NCBI RefSeq assembly: GCF_044324785.1
Contig: NZ_CP172127.1
Reading direction: 5' to 3' (one strand)
Source: Escherichia coli
GTDB taxonomy: Bacteria; Pseudomonadota; Gammaproteobacteria; Enterobacterales; Enterobacteriaceae
Length of the DNA: 64,000 nt
Part shown: positions 5,387 to 55,010 of the stretch, piece after piece
Numbering within the stretch: position 1 is the first letter of the stretch
Layout: every line of letters begins with the position of its first letter
Position numbers and translations under genes: made by a program
The notes under the pieces: generated by a model
The model's input: the letters and a program-made list of their open reading frames with translations, nothing else
What the model was told of the DNA's origin: nothing
Databases searched by the model: none

Positions 5387-6652
5387 ATGGCTTCTACTTT
5401 TACCAGCGACACATTGCCTGCCGATCACAAAGCAGCTATCCGTCAGATGAAGCACGCGCTGCGGGCGCAGCTTGGCGACGTCCAGCAGATCTTTAATCAG
5501 CTAAGCGATGACATTGCCACGCGAGTGGCTGAAATCAACGCACTCAAAGCACAGGGCGATGCCGTCTGGCCGGTGCTGTCTTATGCCGATATCAAAGCAG
5601 GTCATGTTACTGCAGAGCAGCGCGAACAAATTAAACGTCGCGGTTGTGCGGTGATAAAAGGCCATTTCCCCCGCGAACAAGCGCTAGGCTGGGATCAGTC
5701 GATGCTGGACTATCTGGACCGCAACCGCTTTGACGAGGTCTACAAAGGCCCCGGCGATAATTTCTTCGGGACACTCAGCGCTTCACGTCCCGAGATTTAC
5801 CCCATCTACTGGTCGCAGGCGCAAATGCAGGCCCGCCAGAGTGAAGAAATGGCGAATGTGCAGTCGTTTCTCAATCGTCTGTGGACATTTGAAAGTGATG
5901 GAAAGCAATGGTTTAACCCGGATGTGAGCGTCATCTACCCTGACCGTATCCGCCGCCGTCCGCCCGGAACGACCTCCAAAGGTCTTGGAGCGCATACCGA
6001 CTCCGGGGCGCTGGAACGCTGGCTGCTTCCAGCGTATCAGCACGTTTTCGCCAACGTCTTTAATGGCAATCTGGCGAAATACGATCCCTGGCATGCGGCA
6101 CATCGTACGGAAGTTGAAGAGTACACGGTGGACAACACCACCAAATGTTCCGTGTTTCGGACATTCCAGGGCTGGACAGCGCTCTCTGATATGCTGCCTG
6201 GTCAGGGGTTGCTGCACGTCGTGCCCATTCCTGAAGCCATGGCGTACGTACTGTTACGTCCGCTGCTTGATGATGTGCCGGAGGATGAACTGTGCGGCGT
6301 AGCGCCCGGAAGAGTGTTGCCGGTATCAGAGCAATGGCATCCACTGTTAATTGAGGCGTTAACCAGCATTCCAAAACTCGAGGCCGGAGACTCCGTCTGG
6401 TGGCACTGCGACGTCATCCATTCCGTTGCCCCCGTTGAAAATCAACAGGGTTGGGGCAACGTGATGTACATTCCTGCGGCACCGATGTGCGAGAAAAATC
6501 TTGCCTACGCGCACAAGGTGAAGGCCGCACTGGAAAAAGGCGCATCGCCGGGCGACTTCCCGCGCGAGGACTATGAAACAAACTGGGAAGGACGCTTTAC
6601 GCTTGCCGACCTCAACATTCACGGTAAGCGAGCGTTGGGAATCGACAGCTGA
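5387..6652 (+). CDS. ybiU: DUF1479-family protein YbiU
   Basis: ORF 5381..6652; ATG at 5387 has GAGG upstream; 421 aa recognised as YbiU. Confidence 0.85.
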   Translation: MASTFTSDTLPADHKAAIRQMKHALRAQLGDVQQIFNQLSDDIATRVAEINALKAQGDAVWPVLSYADIKAGHVTAEQREQIKRRGCAVIKGHFPREQALGWDQSMLDYLDRNRFDEVYKGPGDNFFGTLSASRPEIYPIYWSQAQMQARQSEEMANVQSFLNRLWTFESDGKQWFNPDVSVIYPDRIRRRPPGTTSKGLGAHTDSGALERWLLPAYQHVFANVFNGNLAKYDPWHAAHRTEVEEYTVDNTTKCSVFRTFQGWTALSDMLPGQGLLHVVPIPEAMAYVLLRPLLDDVPEDELCGVAPGRVLPVSEQWHPLLIEALTSIPKLEAGDSVWWHCDVIHSVAPVENQQGWGNVMYIPAAPMCEKNLAYAHKVKAALEKGASPGDFPREDYETNWEGRFTLADLNIHGKRALGIDS

Positions 6653-7722
6653 GTGTCGTACAGCCCTTCCCGTTCCACGGCGGTGTTCCCTTTTCCTGGG
6701 CGAACCCGCCGCACTGACTCCCGCACCGCCAATCGTCCGTGCAGCAGCAGCGAGCCCACCGGAGCATCCGGGCGAATCAGCCGCTGTTGCAACATTTGCA
6801 CCGCTTCATTGCCTAGCTCATCGCGTGGCACATGCACAGCCGTCAGGGGAACATCCTCGATTGCCGCAAGGTTAAAGCCGTCGATACTCATCACCGAGAC
6901 ATCCTGTGGTACGCGCAGACCACGACGATGTAGCGCATTTACCGTTCCCGCCGCCATAAAATCCCCGCCGACCAGAAACGCCGTCGGCAACGTCTTGCCA
7001 TTGGCGGCATCCAGCCACGCTCCGACCTTTTCTTCCGCTTCTTTAGCGCTAAAACTGCTGATATTCAGCAAATGACGGTCATGGTGAAAGGCCAGATTAT
7101 GCTGACGCCATGATTCTTTAATCCCTGCAAACCGCTGCTCCATAGTGTAGCGGCGCAGGCACATCACATTCATCACCTCCCGGTGACCCATTTCAAACAG
7201 ATAGCGGGCGGCGAACGCGCCAATTAACCGATGGTCCGGCGCAATCGCCGGGAGGCGCATTCGTTCATCACGGCAGTTGATCAGCACACAAGGCTTAGCG
7301 AGATCGGCGGCCAGATCATGGATGTGCGGATCGTCAATCCCCAGCAGGATCGCCGCCTGCGTATCTGCTTCATTCATCCGCGAGAGAAATAGCGCGGGAT
7401 CGCTGTCAAACTCCTCCAGCGCGCAGTAACGCAGCCGCACTTCATGCGGCGATAACGCTTTGCTGATGCTCTGGATCACACGGTAATAAAAGATATCAGA
7501 TCGTTGGTCAAAAGCGCGTTGCGGCGCGAAAATAATCAGGTTGTTCAGCAACATACGACCTGCTGCCATGCCATCCATCACGCCCAACTCACGCGCGCAG
7601 GCCAGCACCTGTTCGCGAGCGCGTGCACTGGTATTCGCTTTGCCAGCCAGCACCCGCGAAACCGTACTCGGCGATAGCCCGGTACGTGCGGCGATATCGG
7701 CGATTTTCAGCTTCTTGTCCAT
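6619..7722 (-). CDS. LacI-family transcriptional regulator (accessory locus)
   Basis: ORF 6619..7800 (-); likely start MDKKLKIADIAARTGLSPSTVSRVL (HTH at N-terminus) at 7722; periplasmic-binding-protein-like core; 3-prime end overlaps ybiU by 34 bp. Confidence 0.8.
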   Translation of the reverse strand: MDKKLKIADIAARTGLSPSTVSRVLAGKANTSARAREQVLACARELGVMDGMAAGRMLLNNLIIFAPQRAFDQRSDIFYYRVIQSISKALSPHEVRLRYCALEEFDSDPALFLSRMNEADTQAAILLGIDDPHIHDLAADLAKPCVLINCRDERMRLPAIAPDHRLIGAFAARYLFEMGHREVMNVMCLRRYTMEQRFAGIKESWRQHNLAFHHDRHLLNISSFSAKEAEEKVGAWLDAANGKTLPTAFLVGGDFMAAGTVNALHRRGLRVPQDVSVMSIDGFNLAAIEDVPLTAVHVPRDELGNEAVQMLQQRLIRPDAPVGSLLLHGRLAVRESVRRVRPGKGNTAVEREGLYDTQLSIPNARLP

Positions 7723-8016
7723 TTTGTGATCTGCCTCTAATTCGGAAATGACAGAATTTTCATGAGCAAAAAAGCCCATTCTGTCTGGCATTAAATCCAT
7801 TTCAGTAATGTATATCAGTCACTCATGGAAAAACGTGCACAAAACCCGCTTTCTTTCGCTTTTAGGGTCTCTTACTGTGAATTGGTAGAACAACTTCCAT
7901 ACAAAAATAATGGAAAAACGAACAACAAAGACTTTATTTATCAAAAAGTTAAAAGTGGTGTGACAACTCCATTCTGACGTTGCCGCACAAACCCTATACC
8001 ATTCTGTGGAGTGCAT

Positions 8017-9318
8017 ATGAGTCAGGGTATCAATAACGATATGACTGCCAGTAAACCGCGCCATATCGTCAAAAATCTGCGTTGGTGGATACTGGTCCTT
8101 TTTTTGCTCGGTGTTACTGTCAACTACATCACGCGTAACTCGCTGGGTATTCTCGCCCCCGAACTGAAAAGCAGCCTGGGGATTACCACCGAACAATATT
8201 CCTGGATTGTAGGTGCTTTCCAGCTCGCCTATACCCTATTCCAACCGTTGTGCGGATGGCTGATTGACGTCATTGGCCTCAAACTGGGCTTTATGATCTG
8301 CGCGGGACTGTGGGCACTGGCCTGTCTGATGCATGCGGGGGCGGGAAACTGGGTACATCTGGCGCTGTTGCGCTTCTTTATGGGCGGTGCGGAAGCCGCA
8401 GCAACCCCAGCAAACGCCAAAACCATCGGTGAATGGTTTCCAAAATCAGAACGCCCGATCGCCGCAGGCTGGGCAGGCGTCGGTTTTTCCATCGGTGCCA
8501 TGCTGGCCCCACCGATTATCTATTTTGCCCACGCTTCATTCGGCTGGCAGGGTGCATTTATGTTCACTGGCATCCTGGCGATGCTGTGGGTCGTGCTGTG
8601 GTGGGCGTTCTATCACAGCCCGGATAAGCATCCTAACCTCAGCAAAGCCGAGCTGGACTTTATTCGCCAGGATAACGAAGCGCCCCCGGTCAAGTTACCC
8701 TTTCTGACCGCACTGAAAACCGTGGGCAAAAATAAACGCTTTTACGGTATCGCTATCCCGGCCTTTATGGCAGAACCGGCGTGGGCGGTGATGAGTTTCT
8801 GGGTTCCGCTATACCTGTCCAAAACCTATGGCATGGACCTGAAGCAGATCGCATTATTCGCCTGGTTGCCGTTCCTCGCCGCTGATCTTGGCAGTATTGC
8901 CAGCGGCTATCTGACCAAACTTTACACCCGCCTGTTTGGGCTGAGTCGTGTGAACTCCGTTGTCGCATCATCGGTCAGTGGCGCATTCCTGATGGTTTCG
9001 CTGGCGGTGATGGCCTTTACCAATAACCCGTATATCGCCATCGTCCTTATCTCCATCGGCGGCTTCGGTCACCAGATCATCTCCTGCATGCTAAGCGCAC
9101 TGGTGGTGGAATCCTTCGACAAAGGTCAGATGGCCACTGTTAACGGCATGCGCGGTTCTGCCGCGTGGATCGCAAGTTTCCTGTTCTCCCTGATAATCGG
9201 GGTTACCGCAGACAAAATCGGCTTTAACCCCCTGTTTATCGCCATGGGCTTCTTTGACCTGATTGGCGCTTTCTTCCTGGTCACCTTTATTGCTGAACGT
9301 CGCGCAAAACGCGCCTGA
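8017..9318 (+). CDS. MFS transporter, anion:cation symporter family, ExuT (hexuronate transporter)-like
   Basis: ORF 8011..9318; ATG at 8017 has GGAG 5 nt upstream; N-terminal region aligns by eye with ExuT (LRWW..TRN...QYSWI...GEWFPKSER...IGAMLAPPI). Confidence 0.8.
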   Translation: MSQGINNDMTASKPRHIVKNLRWWILVLFLLGVTVNYITRNSLGILAPELKSSLGITTEQYSWIVGAFQLAYTLFQPLCGWLIDVIGLKLGFMICAGLWALACLMHAGAGNWVHLALLRFFMGGAEAAATPANAKTIGEWFPKSERPIAAGWAGVGFSIGAMLAPPIIYFAHASFGWQGAFMFTGILAMLWVVLWWAFYHSPDKHPNLSKAELDFIRQDNEAPPVKLPFLTALKTVGKNKRFYGIAIPAFMAEPAWAVMSFWVPLYLSKTYGMDLKQIALFAWLPFLAADLGSIASGYLTKLYTRLFGLSRVNSVVASSVSGAFLMVSLAVMAFTNNPYIAIVLISIGGFGHQIISCMLSALVVESFDKGQMATVNGMRGSAAWIASFLFSLIIGVTADKIGFNPLFIAMGFFDLIGAFFLVTFIAERRAKRA

Positions 9319-9332
9319 GAGTGGATGTAAAC

Positions 9333-11696
9333 ATGAAAACGCTGAAAAACTGGACCCTGCACAAACAGTCTGCCCACCACGTTGAACTGCTGGTCGATGG
9401 CCAGCATATCCTGTGCCTGTACGTGCTGGAAGAAAATCTGTTCCGCGTGCTGTTAAAACGCAAAGGCGAGCTGGCGCTGGATCGCACCTGGAGCATTGCT
9501 CCGGCGCAGGATGTGCCATGGGAAGGGCGCAGCCGCGAAGATCTCAGCGGCTTTAGCCTGCCCGCGTGGACATTGATCCAGCACGACGACACCGTGGTTA
9601 TCGCCACCGAGTCACTGCGTGTCACCGTTCACCAGCCGCTGTGGCTGGAGTGGCACTATCGTAACAACGAAGGCGAATGGCTGCCGTTGGTGAATGACCG
9701 CCCGACCAGCGCTTATCTGCTGAATGCCCACGGCGATGGCGTGGCACACTATCAGAGCCGTCGTAAAGATGAACGCTTTTATGGCCTCGGAGATAAAGCC
9801 GGCGACCTGCAACGCAACGGTAAACGTTACGAGATGCGTAACCTCGACGCGATGGGCTACAACGCCGTTAGTACTGACCCGCTGTACAAACACATTCCAT
9901 TCACCATCACCCGCCGCGATGACATTAGCTTCGGCCTGTTTTATGACAACCTCAGCAGCTGCTGGCTGGATCTGGGCAACGAGATCGACAACTACCACAC
10001 CGCCTATCGCCGCTGGCAGGCGGAAGCGGGTGATATCGACTACTACCTGTTTACCGGCGAACGCGTACTTGATATCACCAAAGCCTTCGTACGCCTGACC
10101 GGAAAAACCCTGTTCGGACCGAAATGGAGCCTGGGCTACAGCGGTTCAACTATGCACTACACCGATGCGCCGGACGCACAAAATCAGTTGATGAACTTTA
10201 TCCGCCTGTGTGAAGAACATGCAATTCCCTGCGATTCGTTCCAGCTCTCTTCCGGTTATACCTCAATTAACGGCAAACGCTATGTGTTCAACTGGAACTA
10301 CGACAAAGTGCCGCAGCCGAAAGTGATGAGCCAGGCATTTCACAATGCTGGTTTGCACCTGGCCGCCAATATCAAGCCGTGCCTGTTGCAGGATCACCCA
10401 CGCTATAACGAAGTGGCAGAAAGAGGACTGTTCATCCGTGATTCAGAAACAGATGAACCAGAACGTTCCAGCTTCTGGGATGACGAAGGTTCTAACCTCG
10501 ACTTTACTAATCCGCAGACCATCCAGTGGTGGCAGGAAGGCGTGACCACACAGCTTCTGGAGATGGGTATCGACTCCACCTGGAACGACAACAACGAATT
10601 CGAAGTATGGGACGGTGAAGCACGCTGTCACGGCTTTGGTCAGACGATCGCGATCAAACATATTCGCCCAGTGATGCCACTGCTGATGATGCGAGCCTCG
10701 ATGGAAGCCCAGCAGCGTTTCGCTCCGGAAAAACGTCCGTACTTGATCTCCCGCTCCGGCTGCGCGGGAATGCAGCGCTACGTGCAGACCTGGAGTGGCG
10801 ATAACCGCACTAGCTGGGACACTCTGCGCTACAACACCCGCATGGGTCTGGGGATGAGCCTCTCCGGGTTGTATAACCTCGGTCACGACGTCGGCGGTTT
10901 CTCCGGTGATAAACCGGACCCGGAACTGTTTGTACGCTGGGTACAAAACGGCGTGATGCATCCGCGCTTTACGATTCACTCATGGAACGATGACCATACC
11001 GTAAACGAACCGTGGATGTATCCGGGCGTCACTCCGGCGATCCGCAGCGCTATTGAGTTGCGCTATCGCCTGCTGCCCTACTTTTATACCCTGATGTGGC
11101 AGGCATACGCCGATGATGAACCAATGCTACGTCCGACTTTCCTTGACCACGAGCACGACGTTCAGACTTTTGAAGAGTGTGATGACTTCCTGCTTGGTCG
11201 CGATATTTTGGTTGCCAGCGTCGTAGAGCAAGGCGAGCGCCAGCGCCGTGTATGGCTGCCAGATAACGAAACTGGCTGGTACGATTTCTACAACGGCGAA
11301 TGGTTCAGTGGCGGTCAGTGGATCACCCTCGACGCACCGCTGGAGAAACTGCCGCTGATGGTGCGTGCCGGGGCTGGTCTACCGCTCAGCAAACGCATCA
11401 CCTATGTGAGCGCAGAACAAGACGATACCCGCGAACTGAAACTGTTCCCGCTGAAAGGTGTGGGCACAACGTCCGGCCTGCTGTTTGAAGACGATGGCGA
11501 AAGCTGGGGCTACCAAACTGGTAATGCGCTTTGGGTGGAATGGGAAATGGTTTGCGATGGGGCGACCATCAACCTGAAAGTCAACGCGCGCGGGGATTAT
11601 CGTCCTGCATGGAGTGCACTGAAAGTGTCATTACCATTGGAAGAAAAACGCACGCTGCTGGTCAATGGTGTTGAAGGGAGTGAATGGATGCGTTAA
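9333..11696 (+). CDS. glycoside hydrolase family 31 (alpha-glycosidase), specificity unknown
   Basis: ORF 9321..11696 (GTG at 9321 or ATG at 9333); GH31 motifs GIDSTWNDNNE (nucleophile region) and RSGCAGMQRYVQTWSGDNRTSW (acid/base region). Confidence 0.8.
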   Translation: MKTLKNWTLHKQSAHHVELLVDGQHILCLYVLEENLFRVLLKRKGELALDRTWSIAPAQDVPWEGRSREDLSGFSLPAWTLIQHDDTVVIATESLRVTVHQPLWLEWHYRNNEGEWLPLVNDRPTSAYLLNAHGDGVAHYQSRRKDERFYGLGDKAGDLQRNGKRYEMRNLDAMGYNAVSTDPLYKHIPFTITRRDDISFGLFYDNLSSCWLDLGNEIDNYHTAYRRWQAEAGDIDYYLFTGERVLDITKAFVRLTGKTLFGPKWSLGYSGSTMHYTDAPDAQNQLMNFIRLCEEHAIPCDSFQLSSGYTSINGKRYVFNWNYDKVPQPKVMSQAFHNAGLHLAANIKPCLLQDHPRYNEVAERGLFIRDSETDEPERSSFWDDEGSNLDFTNPQTIQWWQEGVTTQLLEMGIDSTWNDNNEFEVWDGEARCHGFGQTIAIKHIRPVMPLLMMRASMEAQQRFAPEKRPYLISRSGCAGMQRYVQTWSGDNRTSWDTLRYNTRMGLGMSLSGLYNLGHDVGGFSGDKPDPELFVRWVQNGVMHPRFTIHSWNDDHTVNEPWMYPGVTPAIRSAIELRYRLLPYFYTLMWQAYADDEPMLRPTFLDHEHDVQTFEECDDFLLGRDILVASVVEQGERQRRVWLPDNETGWYDFYNGEWFSGGQWITLDAPLEKLPLMVRAGAGLPLSKRITYVSAEQDDTRELKLFPLKGVGTTSGLLFEDDGESWGYQTGNALWVEWEMVCDGATINLKVNARGDYRPAWSALKVSLPLEEKRTLLVNGVEGSEWMR

Positions 11697-23808: not shown

Positions 23809-26034
23809 ATGCGGTGGATCCTGTTCATCCTCTTCTGCCTGCTGGGCGCACCTGCCCACGCGGTATCCATACCCGGCGTTACAACCACAACGACAACGGA
23901 CTCAACGACTGAACCGGCCCCGGAACCGGATATCGAACAAAAAAAAGCGGCCTATGGCGCACTGGCGGATGTGCTGGATAATGACACCTCGCGTAAAGAG
24001 TTGATCGACCAGTTGCGCACCGTCGCCGCGACGCCCCCTGCGGAACCCGTACCGAAGATCGTGCCGCCGACGCTGGTTGAAGAGCAAACCGTGCTGCAAA
24101 AAGTCACCGAAGTCAGCCGCCATTATGGTGAAGCCCTTTCCGCCCGCTTCGGACAACTTTATCGCAATATCACCGGCTCCCCGCATAAGCCGTTTAATCC
24201 ACAAACCTTCAGCAATGCGTTGACCCATTTTTCAATGTTAGCGGTATTAGTGTTTGGTTTTTACTGGCTGATTCGCCTGTGCGCACTTCCGCTGTATCGC
24301 AAAATGGGTCAGTGGGCGCGGCAAAAAAATCGTGAGCGCAGTAACTGGTTGCAGCTTCCGGCGATGATTATCGGGGCGTTTATTATCGACCTGCTGTTAC
24401 TGGCGCTGACATTGTTTGTCGGCCAGGTATTAAGCGACAACCTGAATGCGGGCAGTCGCACCATCGCTTTCCAACAAAGTTTGTTTCTCAACGCCTTTGC
24501 CCTGATTGAATTTTTCAAAGCTGTACTACGCCTGATTTTTTGCCCAAATGTGGCGGAGCTGCGCCCGTTCACGATTCAGGACGAGAGCGCCCGTTACTGG
24601 AGTCGTCGCCTGAGCTGGTTAAGCAGCCTGATTGGCTATGGCCTGATTGTGGCCGTGCCGATTATCTCTAATCAGGTGAATGTACAGATAGGTGCGCTGG
24701 CGAACGTCATCATTATGCTGTGCATGACGGTCTGGGCGTTGTACCTGATCTTTCGTAATAAAAAAGAGATTACCCAGCATTTGCTCAACTTCGCGGAGCA
24801 TTCGCTGGCCTTTTTCAGCCTGTTTATCCGCGCCTTTGCGCTGGTGTGGCACTGGCTGGCAAGCGCCTATTTTATCGTGCTGTTTTTCTTTTCGTTGTTC
24901 GATCCGGGCAACAGCCTGAAATTTATGATGGGTGCAACGGTGCGCAGCCTGGCGATTATTGGTATCGCAGCGTTTGTTTCCGGTATGTTTTCCCGCTGGC
25001 TGGCGAAAACCATCACCCTCTCGCCACATACTCAGCGTAACTATCCAGAGCTGCAAAAACGGCTGAATGGCTGGCTTTCGGCGGCGCTGAAAACAGCGCG
25101 TATTCTGACAGTCTGCGTGGCGGTAATGCTGCTGTTGAGCGCATGGGGATTGTTCGATTTCTGGAACTGGCTGCAAAACGGTGCGGGGCAGAAAACCGTA
25201 GATATCCTGATCCGTATCGCACTCATTCTTTTCTTCTCGGCGGTTGGCTGGACGGTGCTCGCCAGTTTGATCGAAAACCGGCTGGCTTCGGATATTCATG
25301 GCCGCCCGCTACCCAGCGCCCGCACGCGTACCCTGCTGACGCTGTTTCGTAACGCGCTGGCGGTGATTATCAGTACCATCACCATCATGATTGTGTTGTC
25401 GGAAATCGGCGTCAATATCGCGCCATTGCTGGCAGGTGCCGGGGCATTAGGTCTGGCTATCTCGTTTGGTTCGCAAACGCTGGTGAAAGATATTATCACC
25501 GGGGTATTTATTCAGTTTGAAAACGGCATGAACACTGGAGATTTGGTTACTATCGGGCCGTTGACCGGTACTGTGGAACGGATGTCGATTCGCTCCGTGG
25601 GCGTGCGTCAGGATACCGGGGCGTATCACATCATTCCGTGGTCTTCGATAACCACCTTTGCTAACTTCGTCCGCGGCATTGGTTCGGTGGTGGCAAATTA
25701 CGATGTTGATCGCCATGAAGATGCTGATAAAGCCAATCAGGCACTGAAAGATGCGGTAGCTGAATTGATGGAAAACGAAGAAATTCGCGGGTTGATTATC
25801 GGTGAACCGAACTTTGCCGGGATTGTCGGCTTAAGCAATACCGCGTTTACACTGCGTGTTTCGTTCACCACGCTGCCACTCAAACAGTGGACGGTCCGCT
25901 TTGCCCTCGACAGCCAGGTGAAAAAACATTTCGACCTGGCGGGTGTTCGCGCGCCGGTACAGACTTATCAGGTGCTGCCTGCTCCGGGCGCGGCCCCGGC
26001 TGAACCGTTGCCGCCGGGGGAACCAACGCTTTAA
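23809..26034 (+). CDS. ybiO: mechanosensitive channel, MscS/MscK-like (YbiO)
   Basis: ORF 23782..26034; start [12 protein letters not shown] at 23809; signal peptide, multiple TM segments, MscS-like C-terminal domain. Confidence 0.85.
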
Positions 26035-26957
26035 CGCTGGCGATTGACAAAACGGCGGCGCTGCTCGTCGTTCATAAAGGTCCAGGCAATAAAGCGACTC
26101 TGCTTTTGCCCCTGGGCCATCTCTTTTTTAACCACCTTCACCGCGCCCACGTCCGTCAGGGCACGATACAACGGCGGTAAGTTTTCACCACGAGATACCA
26201 GTGAGGTAAACCACATCACCTGCTTCGCGAAGCCTTTGCTCTCTTCAATCATCTTTTTGATAAAGGTGACTTCACCGCCTTCACACCACAACTCCTGTTG
26301 CTGGCCGCCAAAGTTCAGTGCATCGTCTTTGTTTAGCCCCAGGTTACGGCGTTTACGTTCACTACCTGCCCGTGCCGCAGCGGCGGAATCGTGGAATGGC
26401 GGGTTACACAAGGTCGCGTCGTATTGCTCGTTTTTATGGATGATGCCGTTAAAAATCGCCCCACTCTCTTTTTGCCGACGCAGACGAATGGCGCGGTTAA
26501 GCCCCGGATTAGCACTGATGATCGCCTGCGCACTGCTTAACGCCTGGCTGCTGGTTTCACTACCAGTAAAACGCCAGCCATATTCATGTACGCCAATCAG
26601 CGGGTAAATACAGTTCGCACCAACGCCGATATCCAGAATGCTGGCATTAGCTGGAATTGTTCCGCTTGCTTCTGCCAGTAAATCGGCAAGGTGATGAATA
26701 TAATCCGCCCGGCCCGGTACTGGTGGGCAGAGAAAACCGTCGGGGATATCCCAGTTCGCTACGGCGTAAAAATGGGCCAGCAACGCCTTATTGAGCGCCT
26801 TCACCGCCAGCGGATTGGCAAAGTCTACGCTTTGCTCCCCGGCGGGTGTAAGCGTGAGGAATTGCCTGAGTTCAGGATTGACCTGACAAAGCGTGGCGAG
26901 ATCGTAGCGGCTGTGATGACGGTTGCGCGGATGCAACCCCGGTTTCTGGGCGGACAT
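26031..26957 (-). CDS. rlmF: 23S rRNA m6A1618 methyltransferase RlmF
   Basis: ORF 26031..27038 (-); start [12 protein letters not shown] at 26957 (308 aa); SAM-dependent MTase motifs. Confidence 0.85.
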
Positions 26958-31624: not shown

Positions 31625-31735
31625 TTCGTAAGCCGGATCAGTCGTTTACGCTACGTCCAGCACAAGTATTTCCCTGTCTGTTTGCCGACAGACGCATATG
31701 CTCTAACCCTCATTGATCCTATATTACCCTTGTTT

Positions 31736-31764
31736 GCCCGTCCGTTACTGGACGGGCTTTTTTG
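31736..31764 (+). terminator. rho-independent terminator downstream of ybiJ
   Basis: gcccgtccgttactggacgggc followed by ttttttg. Confidence 0.7.
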
Positions 31765-32473
31765 TGCACAGAAAACCCCCAGCTAGGCTGGGGGTTCCGG
31801 AAAGCTTTCAGCTTTGAGCCAGTTATTAAAACCCCTTTTGATTTGTTAAAACACCTTGCGGTCTGGCAACTGCAAGTGTCAAACAAGAAATCAAAAGGGG
31901 GTCCCAATGGGGGACGAAAAGAGCTTAGCGCACACCCGCTGGAACTGTAAATATCACATAGTTTTTGCGCCGAAATACCGAAGACTGGCGTTTTACGGAG
32001 AGAAGCGTAGGGCGATAGGCAGTATTTTGAGAAAGCTGTGTGAGTGGAAAAGCGTACGGATTCTGGAAGCAGAGTGCTGCGCAGATCATATCCATATGCT
32101 TGTGGAAATCCCACCCAAAATGAGCGTATCCGGCTTTATGGGATATCTGAAAGGGAAAAGCAGTCTGATGCTTTACGAGCAGTTTGGGGATTTGAAATTC
32201 AAATACAGAAACAGGGAGTTCTGGTGCCGAGGGTACTATGTCGATACGGTGGGTAAGAACACGGCGAAGATACAGGACTACATAAAGCACCAGCTTGAAG
32301 AGGATAAAATGGGGGAGCAGTTATCGATTCCATATCCGGGCAGCCCGTTTACGGGCCGTAAGTAACGAAGTTGAATGCAAATGTCAGATCGTATGCGCCT
32401 GTTAGGGCGCGGCTGGTAACAGAGCCTTACAGGCGCATTTGAAAAACCTCCGGCTATGCCGGAGGATATTTAT
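31758..32473 (+). mobile_element. IS200 insertion sequence (ends approximate)
   Basis: Y1 transposase gene flanked by similar subterminal hairpins (cccccagc-tag-gctggggg at 31776-31794 and cctccggc-tat-gccggagg at 32447-32465); RBS-sequestering stem-loop at 31829-31904; about 0.7 kb. Confidence 0.75.
31907..32365 (+). CDS. tnpA: IS200 transposase TnpA (Y1/HUH)
   Basis: ORF 31856..32365; start MGDEKSLAHTRWNC at 31907 (152 aa); HUH motif HIHMLVEI and catalytic Tyr region. Confidence 0.9.
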   Translation: MGDEKSLAHTRWNCKYHIVFAPKYRRLAFYGEKRRAIGSILRKLCEWKSVRILEAECCADHIHMLVEIPPKMSVSGFMGYLKGKSSLMLYEQFGDLKFKYRNREFWCRGYYVDTVGKNTAKIQDYIKHQLEEDKMGEQLSIPYPGSPFTGRK

Positions 32474-36874: not shown

Positions 36875-37010
36875 TTGTGGCATTTTTCGGTTTTCAGGGG
36901 TAATGGTTTTTCTGTTTCTGGAAAGCGGCTCGCAATAACGTTTTCTGGAAGTGAGATTTTCCCGCAGCAGAAGAAACATCATTGCGTAGTAAAAGACAAT
37001 GCACGCAGGC

Positions 37011-37292
37011 TTATTGCGCTGGTGGCCATTGCAGGGCGGTATGCAAAACACGCAGTACCGAGAGCGTATCGCCCTCCACTTGGTAGATCAGCACATAATG
37101 CGGTCTGACAACGGCTTCATGAGTGCCAGCGACTCGTCCGGCCCGATACATCTGCGGGCGTTCACAAACCTGTTCCGCAATGGCTTCAAATTGATTATCA
37201 AGGGCAATTGCCGCTTGCGGATTATCTTTACTGATGTATACCATGATTTGCTCCCTGTCAGACAGGGACATTGGCTTCCATTCCAGACGCAT
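37011..37292 (-). CDS. RelE/ParE-family toxin (ParE-like), 93 aa
   Basis: Pattern typical of ParE/RelE-fold toxins (YISKDNPQAA ... YVLIYQVEGDTLSVLRVLHTALQWP); start ATG overlaps the upstream stop (TAATG). Confidence 0.7.
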   Translation of the reverse strand: MRLEWKPMSLSDREQIMVYISKDNPQAAIALDNQFEAIAEQVCERPQMYRAGRVAGTHEAVVRPHYVLIYQVEGDTLSVLRVLHTALQWPPAQ

Positions 37293-37732
37293 TAATCCCC
37301 CTTCAACAAGGCTTTTTTACGGGCAGCAAATAGACTTTTGGCCTCTTCATGAGAGAGCGCTGGGCGTGGATCGTCAATGGCGGCCTGCACCTGCTCTCGA
37401 AACCAGGCATCATACGCGGCAGCTTCATGAGCTCGTTTTAATGCCTCTGCCCTGTCAGGTCGGGTCGTTTTCTTCTGACCATCCGGGTCGTAATTAGAGG
37501 CGTCGACTTCAAACCGGGCAATACCAACATCTTTCAGGTAGTTGACAACCGTTTCCAGCCGTTTGAACAGGCGGATTTGCCGACTGCGTTGTGCTGCAAG
37601 AGGCCGTTCAGTGTGGCCGTATTTCACGGTCAACGACCAGCCTCCCTGGGTGCCAATAACGTGTGCTGCATCCACTACGCCAGACTCAACCAGTTTATGT
37701 AAGGTTGAGTGATCGATCGTTTCTGGTGCCAT
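37292..37732 (-). CDS. putative antitoxin partner of the ParE-like toxin, atypically long (146 aa), function unknown
   Basis: Coupled to the toxin gene by a 1-nt overlap; AGAGG about 10 nt upstream of the ATG; no confident family assignment by eye. Confidence 0.55.
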   Translation of the reverse strand: MAPETIDHSTLHKLVESGVVDAAHVIGTQGGWSLTVKYGHTERPLAAQRSRQIRLFKRLETVVNYLKDVGIARFEVDASNYDPDGQKKTTRPDRAEALKRAHEAAAYDAWFREQVQAAIDDPRPALSHEEAKSLFAARKKALLKGD

Positions 37733-37768
37733 AATGCGCTAACCTCTTTGTATACAGCATGCAATTTA

Positions 37769-37812
37769 TAATTAAAGATAGCGCAATTAATAATTAAAGA
37801 TAGCGCAATTAA
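37769..37812. repeat. perfect tandem direct repeat, 2 x 22 bp, in the promoter region of the toxin-antitoxin-like operon
   Basis: taattaaagatagcgcaattaa at 37769-37790 and again at 37791-37812, 37-80 bp upstream of the start at 37732; candidate operator. Confidence 0.6.
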
Positions 37813-37909
37813 TAATAAATTGCATTTTTTGATCGTAAATTGTCCAGGGTGAAATTGCGGTAGAAAGAGACTTGTTGCGAAGATGCCGGGCATCGCCCGG
37901 CATAAAAAG

Positions 37910-44034: not shown

Positions 44035-45141
44035 ATGTTTCATCGCTTATGGACGTTAATCCGCAAAGAGTTGCAGTCGCTGCTGCGCGAACCGCAAACC
44101 CGTGCGATTCTGATTTTACCCGTGCTGATTCAGGTGATCCTGTTCCCGTTCGCCGCCACGCTGGAAGTGACTAACGCCACCATCGCCATCTACGATGAAG
44201 ATAACGGCGAGCACTCGGTAGAACTTACTCAACGTTTTGCCCGCGCCAGCGCCTTTACCCATGTGCTGCTACTGAAAAGCCCGCAGGAGATCCGCCCGAC
44301 CATCGACACGCAAAAGGCGTTACTACTGGTACGTTTCCCGGCTGACTTCTCGCGCAAACTGGATACCTTCCAGACCGCGCCGTTGCAGTTGATCCTCGAC
44401 GGGCGTAACTCCAACAGTGCGCAAATTGCCGCTAACTACCTGCAACAGATCGTCAAAAATTATCAGCAGGAGCTGCTGGAAGGAAAACCGAAACCCAACA
44501 ACAGCGAGCTGGTAGTACGCAACTGGTATAACCCGAATCTCGACTACAAATGGTTTGTGGTGCCGTCGCTGATCGCCATGATCACCACTATCGGCGTAAT
44601 GATCGTCACTTCACTTTCTGTCGCCCGCGAACGTGAACAAGGTACGCTCGATCAGTTACTGGTCTCACCGCTCACTACCTGGCAGATCTTCATCGGCAAA
44701 GCCGTACCGGCATTAATTGTCGCCACCTTCCAGGCCACCATTGTGCTGGCGATTGGTATCTGGGCGTATCAAATCCCCTTCGCCGGATCGCTGGCGCTGT
44801 TCTACTTTACGATGGTGATTTACGGTTTATCGCTGGTGGGATTCGGTCTGTTGATTTCATCACTCTGCTCGACACAACAGCAGGCGTTTATCGGCGTGTT
44901 TGTTTTTATGATGCCCGCCATTCTCCTTTCCGGTTACGTTTCTCCGGTGGAAAACATGCCAGTATGGCTGCAAAACCTGACGTGGATTAACCCTATTCGC
45001 CACTTTACGGACATTACCAAGCAGATTTATTTGAAGGATGCGAGTCTGGATATTGTGTGGAATAGTTTGTGGCCGCTACTGGTGATAACGGCCACGACAG
45101 GGTCAGCGGCGTACGCGATGTTTAGACGTAAGGTGATGTAA
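44035..45141 (+). CDS. ybhR: ABC-2 family permease YbhR
   Basis: 368 aa, paralogous to YbhS. Confidence 0.85.
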
Positions 45142-45513
45142 CTTCTTATCTTTCGCCAGCAAAGACACTACCGCCGGGCCGGCAAGGATTGCCAGCCCTG
45201 CAATTGCCAGCAAAAAGTTGTTTTCCAGTACGCGGGACAACAGCCACAGCACAATCAGCGCTGCGCCAAAATACCAGGTCGTAGTCAGCTCTTCCAGCAC
45301 GTCTGCCACCTCACGCCAGCGTTGCTCGGGGTGGCGCTGAAACACCAGCATCATCACTACCGTGACACAATACAGTGCGCATAATCCCACGCCGACGTGA
45401 ACCAGAGTCTTACTCATCCAGCCCACCACCAGCAGCGCCACTACCAGTAAATGCAACATAATCTGCCAGCAACTTAGACCCGTTGCGACACGAACACGTT
45501 GTTGCCACTTCAT
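45103..45513 (-). CDS. ybhQ: inner membrane protein YbhQ
   Basis: 136 aa, four predicted TM segments; 39-bp convergent overlap with ybhR. Confidence 0.8.
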
Positions 45514-48636: not shown

Positions 48637-49086
48637 CTAATGAAAAAAACGCGTATGCCTTTGCCAGACAAGCGTTATCGCTATTGCTGCAAGAATCCCA
48701 AAGAAGCCGATAAAATAGTAATAGAGTGTTAATGCACCTGTAACAGCGCAACGAACCGGACTCCACAATTCTTCGCTATGGCATTTTCCTGCCAGTTCAA
48801 GGAGCTTATTTCGTCCATGCGAGATAATGCCTGACCATAAAACAATCATTAAGCAACTTATTACCCAAATGGGCCGTTCACTCATTAATGCGGCATTCAC
48901 GATGATCACCAGGGCCAACCCTGTCAACGTCATCATAATGATAAAACGGTGAGAACCAGGATCAACATTAAATAATAAACCGGCCAGCATACTGATTAAA
49001 AACATCGCGCCCGCAGTGCTGAACACAAGGATAATGGCAGATACAGGAAGTGACTGCTCCCCGTCCTGTCGGGCGAGGCTTCCCAC
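48637..49086 (-). pseudogene. ybhM: ybhM (BAX-inhibitor/YccA family), C-terminal fragment; upper boundary approximate (about 49030)
   Basis: Minus-strand ORF whose TM-rich sequence continues the N-terminal fragment at 50769..51113; separated from it by the tnpA/tnpB element. Confidence 0.65.
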
Positions 49087-49089
49087 TTC

Positions 49090-50259
49090 TTAAGCCGCAA
49101 CCGTCTGTGTGACGGATTTATGCTGGCCTCCATGGGCAGAAACGACGAGTCCCGCCGCTTGTAATTCCAGTATGCCCTTGCGTTTGATGTTGAGCGCCGC
49201 GTTGATATCGCGGTCATGTTCAACTCCACACTCTGGACACTGCCAGATGCGCTTACGTAATGGCATCTCCGACATTTTGTGACCGCAGCAGTGGCAGGTT
49301 TTCGAACTGGCGAACCATTGATCCAGTTTCACCAGATGCACACCTTTCTCTGCTGCTTTATATTCCAGTTTTGTGATGAATCCAGACCATCCAGCATCGC
49401 CTATCGCACGAGCCAGATGGTGATTTTTCATCATATTTGCCGTTTTCAATTTCTCGACAATTACCGCTTGGTTTTCGTCAACAATTGCGCGAGATAACTT
49501 GTGCTGGAAATCGGCACGGGCACTGGCTACCCGTTCGTGAACGGCTGCAAGTTGTATTCTGGCTTTGCGCCTGTTTGCGCTCCCTTTTTTCTTACGGGAC
49601 AGTGCTTTCTGCTTCCGGCGCAGGTTGCGACTTGCATTGATTAGGTGGCGGGGACTGGCAATTTTATTGCCGTCCGATTTGATGACAAAATGCGCCAGCC
49701 CCATATCCAGCCCTGTCACATTTGATATCAGTGCGGGCTTTGCCGGCGCTTCCATCCCGTCGTCACAGAGTAACGACGCGTAGTATTTCCCGGTTGCGCT
49801 GCGGCTCAACGTGATACTTTTCAGCATTCCCGTAATTTCACGATGTAAACGCGCTTCAATCGGCAAGATTTTCGGTATTTTTATCGCACCATCAAGGACT
49901 TTTATGCCAACACAATGATAGCTCGATTGTCTGCCGTGTTTACTTTTAAAGGTAGGTTTACCTGCTTTCAGTTTCGGATTGAAAAAGTTAGAAAAAGCCA
50001 CGTCGAGGTTAATTACCGCCTGCTGCAACGCAATAGAATCATATTCTTTAAGCCATCCATACCGGCGGGATTTCTTCGCCACTGCAAGCAGTGGTTTGAG
50101 GTCTTTACGCGGGTTTAAATTTACGCGGTGCCGCTGGTAAGAATGTTTCTTGATATGCAGAGCTTTGTTGTACGCAAAACGCACTGCACCGAACTGGGCG
50201 TTGATAAATTCAGCCTGTTCTGGTGTCGGGTAGATGCGTACTTTTGTTGCTCTTAACAT
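49090..50259 (-). CDS. tnpB: TnpB (IS605-family OrfB; RuvC-like RNA-guided endonuclease)
   Basis: 389 aa; RuvC-I GLDMG, zinc finger CHCCG...CPECG, RuvC-III HDRDINAALN; apparently intact. Confidence 0.85.
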   Translation of the reverse strand: MLRATKVRIYPTPEQAEFINAQFGAVRFAYNKALHIKKHSYQRHRVNLNPRKDLKPLLAVAKKSRRYGWLKEYDSIALQQAVINLDVAFSNFFNPKLKAGKPTFKSKHGRQSSYHCVGIKVLDGAIKIPKILPIEARLHREITGMLKSITLSRSATGKYYASLLCDDGMEAPAKPALISNVTGLDMGLAHFVIKSDGNKIASPRHLINASRNLRRKQKALSRKKKGSANRRKARIQLAAVHERVASARADFQHKLSRAIVDENQAVIVEKLKTANMMKNHHLARAIGDAGWSGFITKLEYKAAEKGVHLVKLDQWFASSKTCHCCGHKMSEMPLRKRIWQCPECGVEHDRDINAALNIKRKGILELQAAGLVVSAHGGQHKSVTQTVAA

Positions 50260-50315
50260 AATCAGCGCTCATTGATATAATGCTTTTATTTTAACACTTT
50301 AGGTGAATATATCAA

Positions 50316-50741
50316 TTGAGTAATCATGATGATTTACTGGCGGGATTTCTCCGCAAACGACACAGTGTCAGTAAGCTGGTTGTGCACCTTATTTTTACGA
50401 CAAAGTATCGACGCAAACTATTCGACAGTCAGATGATCGCTCAGTTGCGTGAGGCTTTTGGCTCCGCTGCGGCAAAGCTTGAATGCGAAATTATTGAGAT
50501 GGACGGGGAGCCAGACCATGTACACCTGCTGGTGGCCTACCCGCCAAAACTGGCGGTCAGTGTGATGGTCAATAATTTAAAATCGGTATCATCACGTTTG
50601 CTACGCCAGCAGAACGCGCATTTACGTATGCAGAGTAAAACGGGGCTTTTGTGGTCGAGATCGTACTTTGTCTGTAGCACCGGAGGGGCAACGATTGAAA
50701 CGCTCAGAGCCTACGTTCAGAGTCAGTCAACACCTGATTGA
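50316..50741 (+). CDS. tnpA: IS200/IS605-family transposase TnpA (Y1/HUH)
   Basis: 141 aa; HUH motif HVHLLV; C-terminal Tyr in RAYVQSQ. Confidence 0.85.
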   Translation: MSNHDDLLAGFLRKRHSVSKLVVHLIFTTKYRRKLFDSQMIAQLREAFGSAAAKLECEIIEMDGEPDHVHLLVAYPPKLAVSVMVNNLKSVSSRLLRQQNAHLRMQSKTGLLWSRSYFVCSTGGATIETLRAYVQSQSTPD

Positions 50742-50768
50742 TCTTTAAAGCCCTGCGGGCTTTTCGCC

Positions 50769-51113
50769 TTATATCCCCGCCCGCATTGGGCGAGGGTTTA
50801 CGGCGTTTTTCGCTAAACTTGCAACGACAATCGCCACCAAAGAGAGTAAAAACAGATATATTACGCCTGCGATGGCGGCATTTATCTTGTTGATATCCTT
50901 ACTTAAGCCATACATACAAAGTAATAATAACCCTATGGCGACATACATTGGTGGTGAATCATATTTGGTTGCCGTAATTTCGAGATACTTAGCTCCCCAG
51001 GCCAGTCCTGCGGTTGCCACCAAACCTAAAGCGGTAATGAGCCATATACCGTTTAATATCCTGGCCTCGTGCTGAAAATCTAATTTATTGCTGTTTTGCG
51101 AGTATGATTCCAT
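50769..51113 (-). pseudogene. ybhM: ybhM N-terminal fragment; the reading frame runs into the IS end and stops
   Basis: ORF 50769..51140 (-); start MESYSQNSNKLDF at 51113; last codons (NPRPMRAGI) overlie the IS subterminal hairpins. Confidence 0.65.
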
Positions 51114-53873: not shown

Positions 53874-54863
53874 TTAGCCGCCAATGTACGATAAGTTTTG
53901 CGTAATACCGGTGTTGTTTTGATGCAGGAAATGGGTCTGTTTCTTCTCCCGCAGCGCCGCTGAAATACGCGCTTCCAGCGCCTGTTGCTGGGTATCGTCT
54001 TCCAGCAGATCGCGCAGGTTAACGCCGCCTTCACCAAACAGGCAGAGATGGAGTTTACCAGTGGAGGAAACGCGCAGGCGGTTGCAAGTGGCGCAGAAGT
54101 CTTTTTCATACGGCATGATAAGGCCAATCTCTCCGGCGTAATCCGGATGACAAAAGACTTGCGCGGGACCGTCGCTGCGTTGACGTAATTGGTGGATCCA
54201 GCCGCGACGCAGTAGCTCGTCACGCAGAACCTGACCAGAGATGTGATGCTTACGGAAGAGCTCGCTGCCCTCGCCCGTTTCCATCAATTCGATGAAACGC
54301 AGCTGGATAGGGCGATGCTGGATCCAGTTCAGAAAGGTGTCGAGCTGATGATGATTAACATCACGCATCAGCACGGTATTGACTTTGACCTTCTCAAAAC
54401 CGGCCTCAAATGCAGCATCGATCCCTGCCATGACCTGGTTGAATTTATCCTGCCCGGTAATGGCATGAAACTGGCGAGCGTCAAGGCTATCAACGCTGAC
54501 GTTGATGCCAGTAAGTCCCGCATCGCGCCAGTTCGCCACATCGCGTTCCAGACGGTAACCATTGGTGGTGACCGCAATCTGGCGGATAGCGTCGTTTTCC
54601 CGCACAGCGACGATGATATCGGTAAAGTCGCGGCGTAAAGACGGCTCACCGCCTGTCAGGCGCACTTTTTCGGTGCCCAGACTGGCAAAGGCGCGCGTAA
54701 CCCGGCGAATTTCATCGACGGTAAGAAAGCCTTTATTGGTGACGCCGCTCGGTTTGTAGCCATCCGGCAGGCAGTAGGTGCAACGAAAGTTACACACATC
54801 AGTAATCGACAGGCGCAAGTAGTAAAACTTACGCGCAAATGCATCAGTCAGTTGTGAAGCCAT
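53874..54863 (-). CDS. moaA: GTP 3',8-cyclase MoaA (radical SAM)
   Basis: ORF 53874..54944 (-); start [19 protein letters not shown] at 54863 (329 aa); CxxxCxxC motif CNFRCTYC. Confidence 0.9.
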
Positions 54864-54869
54864 GTACAC

Positions 54870-55010
54870 CTTTCCAGATACGGGAGGCGAAGTCATTTCT
54901 TCCTTCGCCCTGGTGGCAATCTTTACGAGCATTGTCACGGCCAAAGCACCGTATCAGTTGACCCAGGTGCAGAGGCTAGAGTGTTTAGTGGTTAAGCCGA
55001 TACTAGCGTG
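54870..55010 (-). ncRNA. candidate molybdenum cofactor (Moco) riboswitch in the moaA leader (boundaries approximate)
   Basis: Long leader between promoter and moaA start; placement follows the known Moco RNA motif upstream of moaA; I did not fold it or score a covariance model. Confidence 0.45.

Follow-up and report, generated by a model that had tools for sequence, protein, structure and literature searches.

Tail-to-tail overlaps between convergent coding sequences are familiar in Escherichia coli, where Lillo and Krakauer (2007) counted about 58 of them (PMC2174442). The modal class consists of 4-nt overlaps, in which the shared tetramer is CTAA, TTAA, CTAG or TTAG; phase 123:321 holds 33% of the convergent overlaps of at least 5 nt; and mutation of a stop codon is, in the published general model, the usual way in which such overlaps arise (PMC2174442).

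Convergent pairs have also been catalogued by their transcripts. ExcludonFinder lists 165 convergent excludons in MG1655, among them ybhQ-ybhR and rlmF-ybiO (PMC12288877). A pair enters the list when its transcripts overlap in 50% or more of the 58 RNA-seq samples, a measure of coverage only, and validation of double-stranded RNA with p19 is stated not to be feasible for convergent pairs. In the view of the authors these pairs are units of regulation, and their synteny is reported to be higher (PMC12288877). One convergent pair with a reported regulatory effect is mscL-arfA, for which antisense crosstalk between the 3′ UTRs is described (PMC10070815).

Two further systems concern the ends of transcripts. 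Dar and Sorek 2018 describe Rho-dependent mRNAs that end just after stable stem-loops lacking a U tract; these protect the RNA from 3′ exonucleases, and the rut sites lie downstream (PMC6061677). Wang et al. reported that polymerases converging on a stem-loop can bring each other to termination there (bioRxiv 10.1101/2022.10.23.513370).

We analysed a 64,000-nt stretch of E. coli DNA (hereafter the window) that is collinear with positions 818-866 kb of K-12 MG1655, in reverse orientation and at 97-98% identity. A preliminary description had placed three convergent overlaps in it, ybhR/ybhQ (39 bp), ybiU/LacI (34 bp) and ybiO/rlmF (4 bp), and had pointed out that earlier stop codons would separate the genes. 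The open reading frame lists, the sequence and the RefSeq annotation bear out all three (Table 1); none of the six reading frames contains an earlier in-frame stop, and the overlaps stand. RefSeq annotates identical overlaps in E. coli 042, ST2747 and isolate AF40. The MG1655 annotation carries two only, ybhR/ybhQ (ybhQ 824630-825040, ybhR 825002-826108) and rlmF/ybiO (rlmF 842332-843258, ybiO 843255-845480). K-12 is without the third pair, and all the RNA data used below come from K-12, not from this strain.

The six genes are genuine coding sequences, each having Pfam matches above threshold, many orthologues and a RefSeq CDS. Because the Pfam domains run to or near the C-termini, the reading frames are fixed. 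YbhR matches ABC2_membrane_3 over residues 25-359 and ABC2_membrane_2 over residues 6-366, the YbhQ model spans residues 1-132 of 136, and the YbiU domain extends to residue 420 of a 423-aa reading frame. The LacI-family domain of the regulator ends at residue 363 of a 393-aa reading frame and the 34-bp overlap lies outside it; the last ~27 residues of YbiO are a variable Pro/Ala-rich tail beyond the last domain.

We conclude, with a probability of roughly 0.8, that the overlaps are three ordinary tail-to-tail cases between real genes, each with a separate history, and that no regulatory purpose is needed to account for them. The arrangement itself is ordinary and already known; the comparative details set out below are the sole new points.

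Table 1. Positions of the overlapping genes, the shared segments and the transcript-end features in the window
Feature	Position	Strand	Remarks
ybiU CDS	5387..6652	+	DUF1479/Gig2-like; stop TGA 6650-6652
LacI-family regulator CDS	6619..7779	-	386 aa; first gene of LacI-MFS-GH31 cluster (to 11696)
ybiU/LacI overlap	6619..6652	both	34 bp
ybiO CDS	23809..26034	+	MscS-type mechanosensitive channel; stop TAA 26032-26034
rlmF CDS	26031..26957	-	23S rRNA m6A1618 methyltransferase; stop TAA 26033-26031
ybiO/rlmF overlap	26031..26034	both	TTAA, two interlocked stop codons
ybhR CDS	44035..45141	+	368 aa; stop TAA 45139-45141; ABC-2 permease of ybhGFSR exporter; ORF list, RefSeq
ybhQ CDS	45103..45513	-	136 aa; stop TGA 45105-45103; small inner-membrane protein, PF11076
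ybhR/ybhQ shared coding segment	45103..45141	both	39 bp; codons exactly antisense-aligned (position 1 opposite 3, 2 opposite 2)
GC-rich 8-bp stem-loop (inverted repeat)	45069..45095	-	GUGGCCGU..11 nt..GCGGCCAC on ybhQ-sense RNA
Equivalent of K-12 ybhQ mRNA 3′ end	45062..45064	-	~6 nt after stem, inside ybhR
Equivalent of Rho-region peak, ybhQ read-through	44961	-	K-12 825182(+), Rho score 3.95 (PMC7815308)
Equivalent of Rho-region peak, ybhGFSR transcript	45214	+	K-12 824929(-), Rho score 3.85 (PMC7815308)

The history of the 34-bp overlap is the easiest to read. At its end the regulator carries a 10-codon C-terminal extension, QLSIPNARLP*, encoded at 6619-6651, and CAG at 6651-6649 replaces the stop codon present in Salmonella and Citrobacter. 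The protein alignment agrees: most regulator orthologues are 357 aa long and end in ...EGLYD(S/G/D), and ten extra residues are found in the proteins of Escherichia, Kluyvera and Pseudocitrobacter. The Salmonella DNA reads ...GAT AGT TAA ATG TCC ATA CCT AAT GCC CGC TTG CCG TGA, with a 4-bp TTAA overlap and the same frame downstream; the corresponding tetramer in Citrobacter is CTAA. The codons past the old stop of the regulator are homologous as far as the shared TGA, which lies opposite conserved YbiU codons. On these alignments the 34-bp overlap is a stop-loss extension of the 4-bp TTAA overlap. The ancestral tetramer grew to 34 bp once the stop of the regulator was lost (TAA in Salmonella, CAG here), and the reading frame then ran on to the next in-frame TGA, held in place by the conserved YbiU codons.

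K-12 has a 240-bp ybiT-ybiU spacer in place of the LacI-MFS-GH31 cluster, which just 576 out of 5426 complete E. coli genomes possess. Because Salmonella, Citrobacter and Kluyvera have it in the same position beside ybiU, the cluster is ancestral and has been lost from most E. coli. We considered the idea that the cluster is an inserted island whose junction made the overlap, and rejected it on the same ground; K-12 has lost the cluster.

The 4-bp overlap comes and goes. Here the ybiO/rlmF tetramer reads TTAA, and its counterpart in Salmonella and Citrobacter koseri reads CTAA. The gap between the two genes is 0 bp in Klebsiella and 47 bp in Enterobacter cancerogenus, and Kluyvera is without ybiO. 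The overlap is a member of the standard tetramer class and is evolutionarily labile, with the tetramer present in Escherichia, Salmonella and Citrobacter and absent in Klebsiella and Enterobacter.

The 39-bp ybhR/ybhQ overlap was followed across species. We assembled 80 Enterobacteriaceae species loci, retrieved through YbhQ, and the two genes are adjacent in every one. In 70 of the 80 the shared segment measures exactly 39 bp, among them loci from Escherichia, Citrobacter, Salmonella, Leclercia, Enterobacter, Kluyvera, Atlantibacter, Buttiauxella and Cedecea; it is 48 bp in Kosakonia cowanii, and it is missing in the remaining nine, which have a gap of 2-206 bp. These nine are from Raoultella, some Kosakonia, Enterobacter sp. 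JUb54 and one locus labelled Citrobacter freundii M-21. Most YbhQ homologues from Citrobacter, Salmonella, Leclercia and Enterobacter have a length of 136 aa. Opposite each stop codon, in YbhQ at the ybhR stop and the reverse, the residue is always Leu or Ser, because the genetic code requires it.

Such conservation of length would be expected anyway, because an indel frameshifts both tails and the partner's codons lock both stops. Variants in the YbhQ tail map to synonymous or conservative changes in ybhR, for instance K/E opposite TTT/TTC. The ybhR site A-10 has an entropy of 0.38 against a background mean of 1.32, and the only low four-fold site outside the stem described below lies in the overlap itself; constraint on ybhR third positions that lie opposite first positions of YbhQ codons fits with translation of the YbhQ tail. 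The ybhR/ybhQ pair is probably an old, frozen overlap in which two short basic cytoplasmic tails are encoded on opposite strands, codon-aligned, with each stop codon opposite a Leu or Ser codon of the partner. YbhR would set the sequence and the YbhQ tail would mostly follow. YbhR is, on this evidence, the constrained partner and the YbhQ tail is largely free-riding; the tails are probably neutral.

The nine loci without the overlap reveal how it can be undone. In each, YbhQ departs right after ...KDK and acquires another tail, ...FGLHQGGNAANPxKHR*, and the YbhR tail AAYAMFRRK.. is unaltered. In two Raoultella loci (L074 and L076) the sequence of the alternative YbhQ tail lies within a unit of ~122 bp present in two tandem copies, and a third Raoultella locus (L079) has one copy of the start of this unit. 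The overlap is thus probably the older state, a direction of change that the sequence comparison suggests and does not prove. Comparison across relatives could not establish an origin by stop-codon mutation for this pair.

Neither the number nor the length of the overlaps calls for a special explanation. In the antisense codon-aligned frame, stops arise solely opposite TTA, CTA and TCA codons. Such codons are scarce, making up 1.5% of the total in 16 long window genes and 4.1% in ybhR, so that a 12-codon run-on is unremarkable. By our own count three of about ten convergent pairs in the window overlap. Genome-wide, roughly 9% of convergent pairs in E. coli do so. The enrichment in the window is not significant and at most borderline (rough binomial P ~0.05 against that estimated rate of ~9%).

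The three cases therefore sit comfortably beside those of Lillo and Krakauer (PMC2174442). The orientation is the same, the 4-bp TTAA and CTAA tetramers belong to the modal class, the 34-bp case fits an origin by stop-codon mutation, and the 39-bp case is in phase 123:321. Terminators are forced into the coding sequence of the partner, as has been discussed for the 58 E. coli cases. Nothing essential is different, except that here evolutionary steps can be traced: the loss of the regulator's stop, and the extra sequence that undid the ybhR/ybhQ overlap in some genera.

The preliminary description had further proposed that, with no space for a terminator, transcripts must read antisense into the neighbour. 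Because the stop regions overlap and leave no intergenic room, each mRNA must indeed extend antisense into the neighbouring gene, and K-12 data support such reading: the ybhQ 3′ end maps inside ybhR, Rho regions occur on both strands, and the pairs are listed as excludons. The lack of intergenic room holds too, but the transcripts are not without 3′-end signals, since a hairpin and Rho regions are found within the ORF of the neighbour.

Documented transcript overlap invites a regulatory reading, raised in the preliminary description as possible antisense interference or collision, in which the overlaps are functional convergent excludons that were selected since transcription of one gene lowers the neighbour, either because RNA polymerases collide or because RNase III cuts the sense-antisense duplex; ybhQ might, for example, tune the 3′ end of the ybhGFSR mRNA. 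Both K-12 pairs are named members of the published list (PMC12288877), the ybhQ and ybhR transcripts overlap by roughly 150-250 nt (PMC7815308), and convergent polymerases can end each other at stem-loops (bioRxiv 10.1101/2022.10.23.513370). Selection for coupling could also be reflected in the 39-bp overlap of 70 of 80 loci and in the adjacency of the genes in all 80. The listing is, however, a matter of coverage, and the excludon concept implies mutually exclusive expression whereas here transcript overlap is what has been documented; the ybiU/LacI pair is not in MG1655 and hence not listed. Moreover, nine species dropped the ybhR/ybhQ overlap and kept both genes, the rlmF/ybiO overlap varies between genera and Kluyvera has no ybiO, the 34-bp overlap is plain stop-loss, and the persistence of the 39-bp overlap is what frameshifts and stop locking predict. 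Regulation is not required to explain the overlaps, because several lineages lost them and the 34-bp case is plainly mutational.

The mscL-arfA pair is a useful comparison. Like ybiO-rlmF it is an E. coli convergent pair with a mechanosensitive channel as one partner and overlapping 3′ regions, and it too is in the excludon list. It differs in that a regulatory effect is reported there (PMC10070815), whereas we found none reported for ybiO-rlmF or ybhR-ybhQ. We consider functional excludons unlikely, and we infer that regulatory coupling is absent at these overlaps.

We can say most about how the ybhQ transcript ends. In K-12 its 3′ end was placed by Term-seq at 825080(+), where it is classed both as a primary ybhQ end and as antisense to the ybhR gene (PMC7815308), and by an independent method, TRS, at 825079-825081 (PMC10687069). 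The mapped end is 39-41 nt beyond the ybhQ stop and ~79 nt into ybhR. K-12 positions were transferred to the window through collinear genes of equal length, and the window is identical to the published Term-seq flanking sequence. A hairpin identical to the one in Table 1 was drawn at the mapped end, with -19.2 kcal/mol and 2-3 U (PMC10687069).

This hairpin occupies ybhR codons -24 to -15. On the ybhQ side it begins 7 nt beyond the stop, and on the ybhR side it sits 44 nt upstream of the stop codon, within the reading frame. In its 86-nt context the minimum free energy is -21.7 kcal/mol (z = -2.6). There is no U tract after the stem; the tail is AAACUAUUCCACAC. Across 67 distinct sequences, 97.6% of cells are paired. 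Compensatory changes amount to 7 cells in 2 pairs, which is thin covariation. Where one side alone has changed in the six inner pairs, the outcome is compatible with G.U pairing in the ybhQ sense in 18 cases and gives A.C in 2.

The stem also leaves a mark on synonymous sites. The comparison covered 60 conserved four-fold degenerate sites in the last 200 codons of ybhR, 59 of them outside the overlap. At the three four-fold sites of the stem the third-position entropy is 0.26, 0.36 and 0.00 bits, against a background mean of 1.32 and minimum of 0.47, and these values are the lowest of the 59; the other Pro and Ala codons in the comparison range over 0.47-1.78 bits. All the tests on the hairpin leave phylogenetic non-independence out of account, and they are suggestive, not conclusive.

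The stem tends to decay where the ybhQ end has moved. Among the loci that keep the 39-bp overlap there are 2 mismatched stem cells in the 67 distinct sequences. Of the 10 loci in which the ybhQ end is displaced or extended, 6 have a stem that is mismatched internally, though Raoultella keeps it whole. At loci with separated genes, replacement hairpins gave a mixed picture, being strong at two loci (L039 and L065) and absent at three (L030, L074 and L076).

Could the palindrome be a by-product of the YbhR residues (W-P...A-A-T) and codon bias, or a site that acts at the level of DNA, and not an RNA 3′-end element? In favour of this, conserved amino acids set the non-synonymous positions that enter five of the eight pairs, the codons CCG and GCC/GCG occur commonly, few compensatory changes are seen, and an inverted DNA repeat would give the same symmetric changes. 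Against this, the four-fold sites of the stem are below those of other Pro and Ala codons, and the changes are not symmetric: G.U changes in the ybhQ sense occur 18 times in the inner pairs, whereas GCC to GCU at codon -16, which pairs in ybhR-sense RNA only, is never seen. In two independent maps the ybhQ 3′ end comes 5-7 nt beyond the stem, which has decayed in most lineages in which that end moved. A by-product or a DNA-level site is, in our judgement, improbable.

We propose that the hairpin is the protective 3′ stem-loop of a Rho-terminated ybhQ mRNA. Bicyclomycin-sensitive Rho regions have been mapped in K-12 on both strands (PMC7815308). The peak for ybhQ read-through has P = 5e-7 for its score of 3.95, a region-level score at 825182(+) and not at the 3′ end itself (PMC7815308); that for the ybhGFSR transcript corresponds to a position within ybhQ, 73 nt beyond the stop of ybhR. 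The RNA past the ybhQ stop has a C fraction of 0.33 and a G fraction of 0.14 in its first 78 nt, stem included, a bias that fades beyond ~50 nt, and the plus strand past the ybhR stop has C at 0.31-0.38 and G at 0.14-0.27. Consensus scans for intrinsic terminators at the three junctions returned weak candidates of 5-6 bp only, none at the mapped end; the numbers were 6 in the ybhR/ybhQ region against 2.5 expected from shuffling, and 2 against 1.5 and 2 against 1.3 at the other two. An Rfam scan of the whole window gave no match at the junctions, the hits being STnc490 and a Moco riboswitch elsewhere.

Because there is no spacer, the ybhQ mRNA runs into ybhR. Rho would terminate it ~100-150 nt downstream, and the mRNA would then be trimmed back, presumably by exonucleases, to the stem-loop embedded in ybhR; such trimming would give the sharp 3′ end seen in K-12. 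For the ybhGFSR mRNA, Rho would act within ybhQ, ~70 nt beyond the end of ybhR. In the part of ybhQ that lies beyond the ybhR stop we found neither a conserved structure nor constrained synonymous sites.

The proposal places ybhQ close to the mRNAs of Dar and Sorek 2018 (PMC6061677). In both, a stem-loop without a U tract lies just upstream of a precise end, and a Rho-dependent region lies downstream; the C-rich RNA past the ybhQ stop may be a further likeness. The difference is that the ybhQ stem-loop sits in the coding sequence of a convergent neighbour, with wobble positions constrained across genera. The bidirectional terminators and programmed collisions of Wang et al. share a convergent pair and a stem-loop near the gene boundary, but the ybhQ stem is upstream of the ybhR stop and transcription of ybhR must pass through it. 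We rejected a collision-type bidirectional terminator on these grounds: the stem is inside the ybhR ORF, upstream of its stop, and a 3′ end has been reported on the ybhQ side only.

A bolder version of the regulatory reading would make the 39-bp overlap and the ybhR hairpin together a selected coupling device, by which transcription of ybhQ acts on the ybhGFSR mRNA. Were this the case, transcription of ybhQ would reach the last ~80-180 nt of that mRNA and set its 3′ integrity or cause collisions at the stem, and a small membrane protein of uncharacterized function would be linked to control of an efflux pump. We find this very doubtful and prefer the reading in which the overlap is ordinary and the hairpin protects one transcript.

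That the overlaps are an artefact of annotation, one gene of each pair ending earlier or being untranslated, is very improbable: YbhQ and the 10-residue extension of the regulator are known here from sequence, and a PDB search with YbhR and YbhQ found no close structures (neither has a solved structure), but the six reading frames lack earlier in-frame stops and all encode conserved Pfam families, the 136-aa length and stop position of YbhQ are conserved across genera, and ybhR third positions opposite first positions of YbhQ codons are unusually constrained.

In themselves the overlaps matter little. They are in the reference annotation, statistical studies of the class go back to the 2000s, and a published excludon catalogue already contains two of the pairs, with mapped RNA ends. 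Together they make a worked example of how convergent overlaps originate (loss of a stop codon), persist (mutual locking of stop codons and tails) and are undone (sequence between the genes donates a new tail). They also illustrate that a stem-loop that probably stabilizes an mRNA can persist inside the coding sequence of a neighbour, with a clear footprint at synonymous sites. Such a footprint at gene ends is a caution for analyses of dN/dS or codon usage.

Some smaller observations complete the picture. Two published K-12 maps report no 3′ ends for rlmF/ybiO (PMC7815308, PMC10687069); ybhR, ybiU and the regulator likewise have no mapped 3′ end. A 7-bp inverted repeat at 25994-26019, after the rlmF stop, was considered as an analogue of the ybhQ hairpin and rejected, as it is unconserved in Salmonella and Citrobacter. 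The ybhQ2 promoter responded to induction of sigma-E (PMC7075262), and fsaA-moeB, at the left edge of the window, is also a listed excludon (PMC12288877).

The ybhR/ybhQ overlap is absent from several comparison loci, and there the region between the two genes carries inserted sequence. At two Raoultella loci a unit of about 122 bp stands between ybhQ and ybhR as a tandem duplicate (L074, 2884-3120; L076, 2981-3146). Single copies of a related sequence are found at five further loci (L028, L031, L039, L065 and L079, the last also from Raoultella), and at all five the insert codes for the same alternative YbhQ C-terminal tail as at the two duplicated loci. The unit may be a mobile repeat. At the other end of ybhQ, published Term-seq data place a 3' end inside the ORF itself, 60 nt from its start, at K-12 824690(+), equivalent to about 45453 (-) in the window, with an intrinsic-terminator score of 4.9 and a Rho score of 0.6. 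This 3' end may mark a site of premature termination.

A repeat element may have opened the rlmF-ybiO overlap in Enterobacter cancerogenus, where the two genes are separated by a spacer of 47 bp (L090 3913-3959). The spacer contains GCCGGGTAAGGCGAAGCCGCCACCCGGC, which by eye resembles a GC-rich hairpin of REP type.

The LacI-family gene that overlaps ybiU belongs to a LacI-MFS-GH31 cluster (window 6619-11696). Of 5426 complete E. coli genomes, only 576 have this cluster. It adjoins ybiU syntenically in Salmonella, Citrobacter and Kluyvera, and has therefore been deleted from most E. coli.

K-12 has a further tail-to-tail overlap, of 2 nt, between the hcxB coding sequence and the sRNA gene zbiJ (K-12 locus L004, 19436-19437). 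In the window IS200 takes the place of the segment that holds it: 31663-32468 is unlike K-12 and stands in place of the ybiE/zbiJ stretch. Similarly, 36940-37881 stands in place of the K-12 ybiA region. The window's ybhM is split by an insertion at 49050-50812 that K-12 lacks; its tnpB and Y1 tnpA make up a pair of IS200/IS605 type. The molybdenum cofactor riboswitch lies where expected, upstream of moaA.

Additional features annotated in the window
Feature	Position	Strand	Remarks
STnc490	31774-31897	+	Rfam match, 146 bits; precedes IS200-like Y1 transposase ORF
IS200-like Y1 transposase ORF	31856-32365	+	in segment replacing ybiE/zbiJ
ORF with PaaA2 antitoxin-like 'stability determinant' domain	37292-37732	-	E = 2e-10; in segment replacing ybiA region
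Bax1-I remnant ORF	48637-49086	-	at ybhM insertion
tnpB	49090-50259	-	OrfB_IS605 and Cas12f1-like TNB domain
Y1 tnpA	50316-50741	+	
Molybdenum cofactor riboswitch	54851-54995	-	Rfam RF01055, 103 bits
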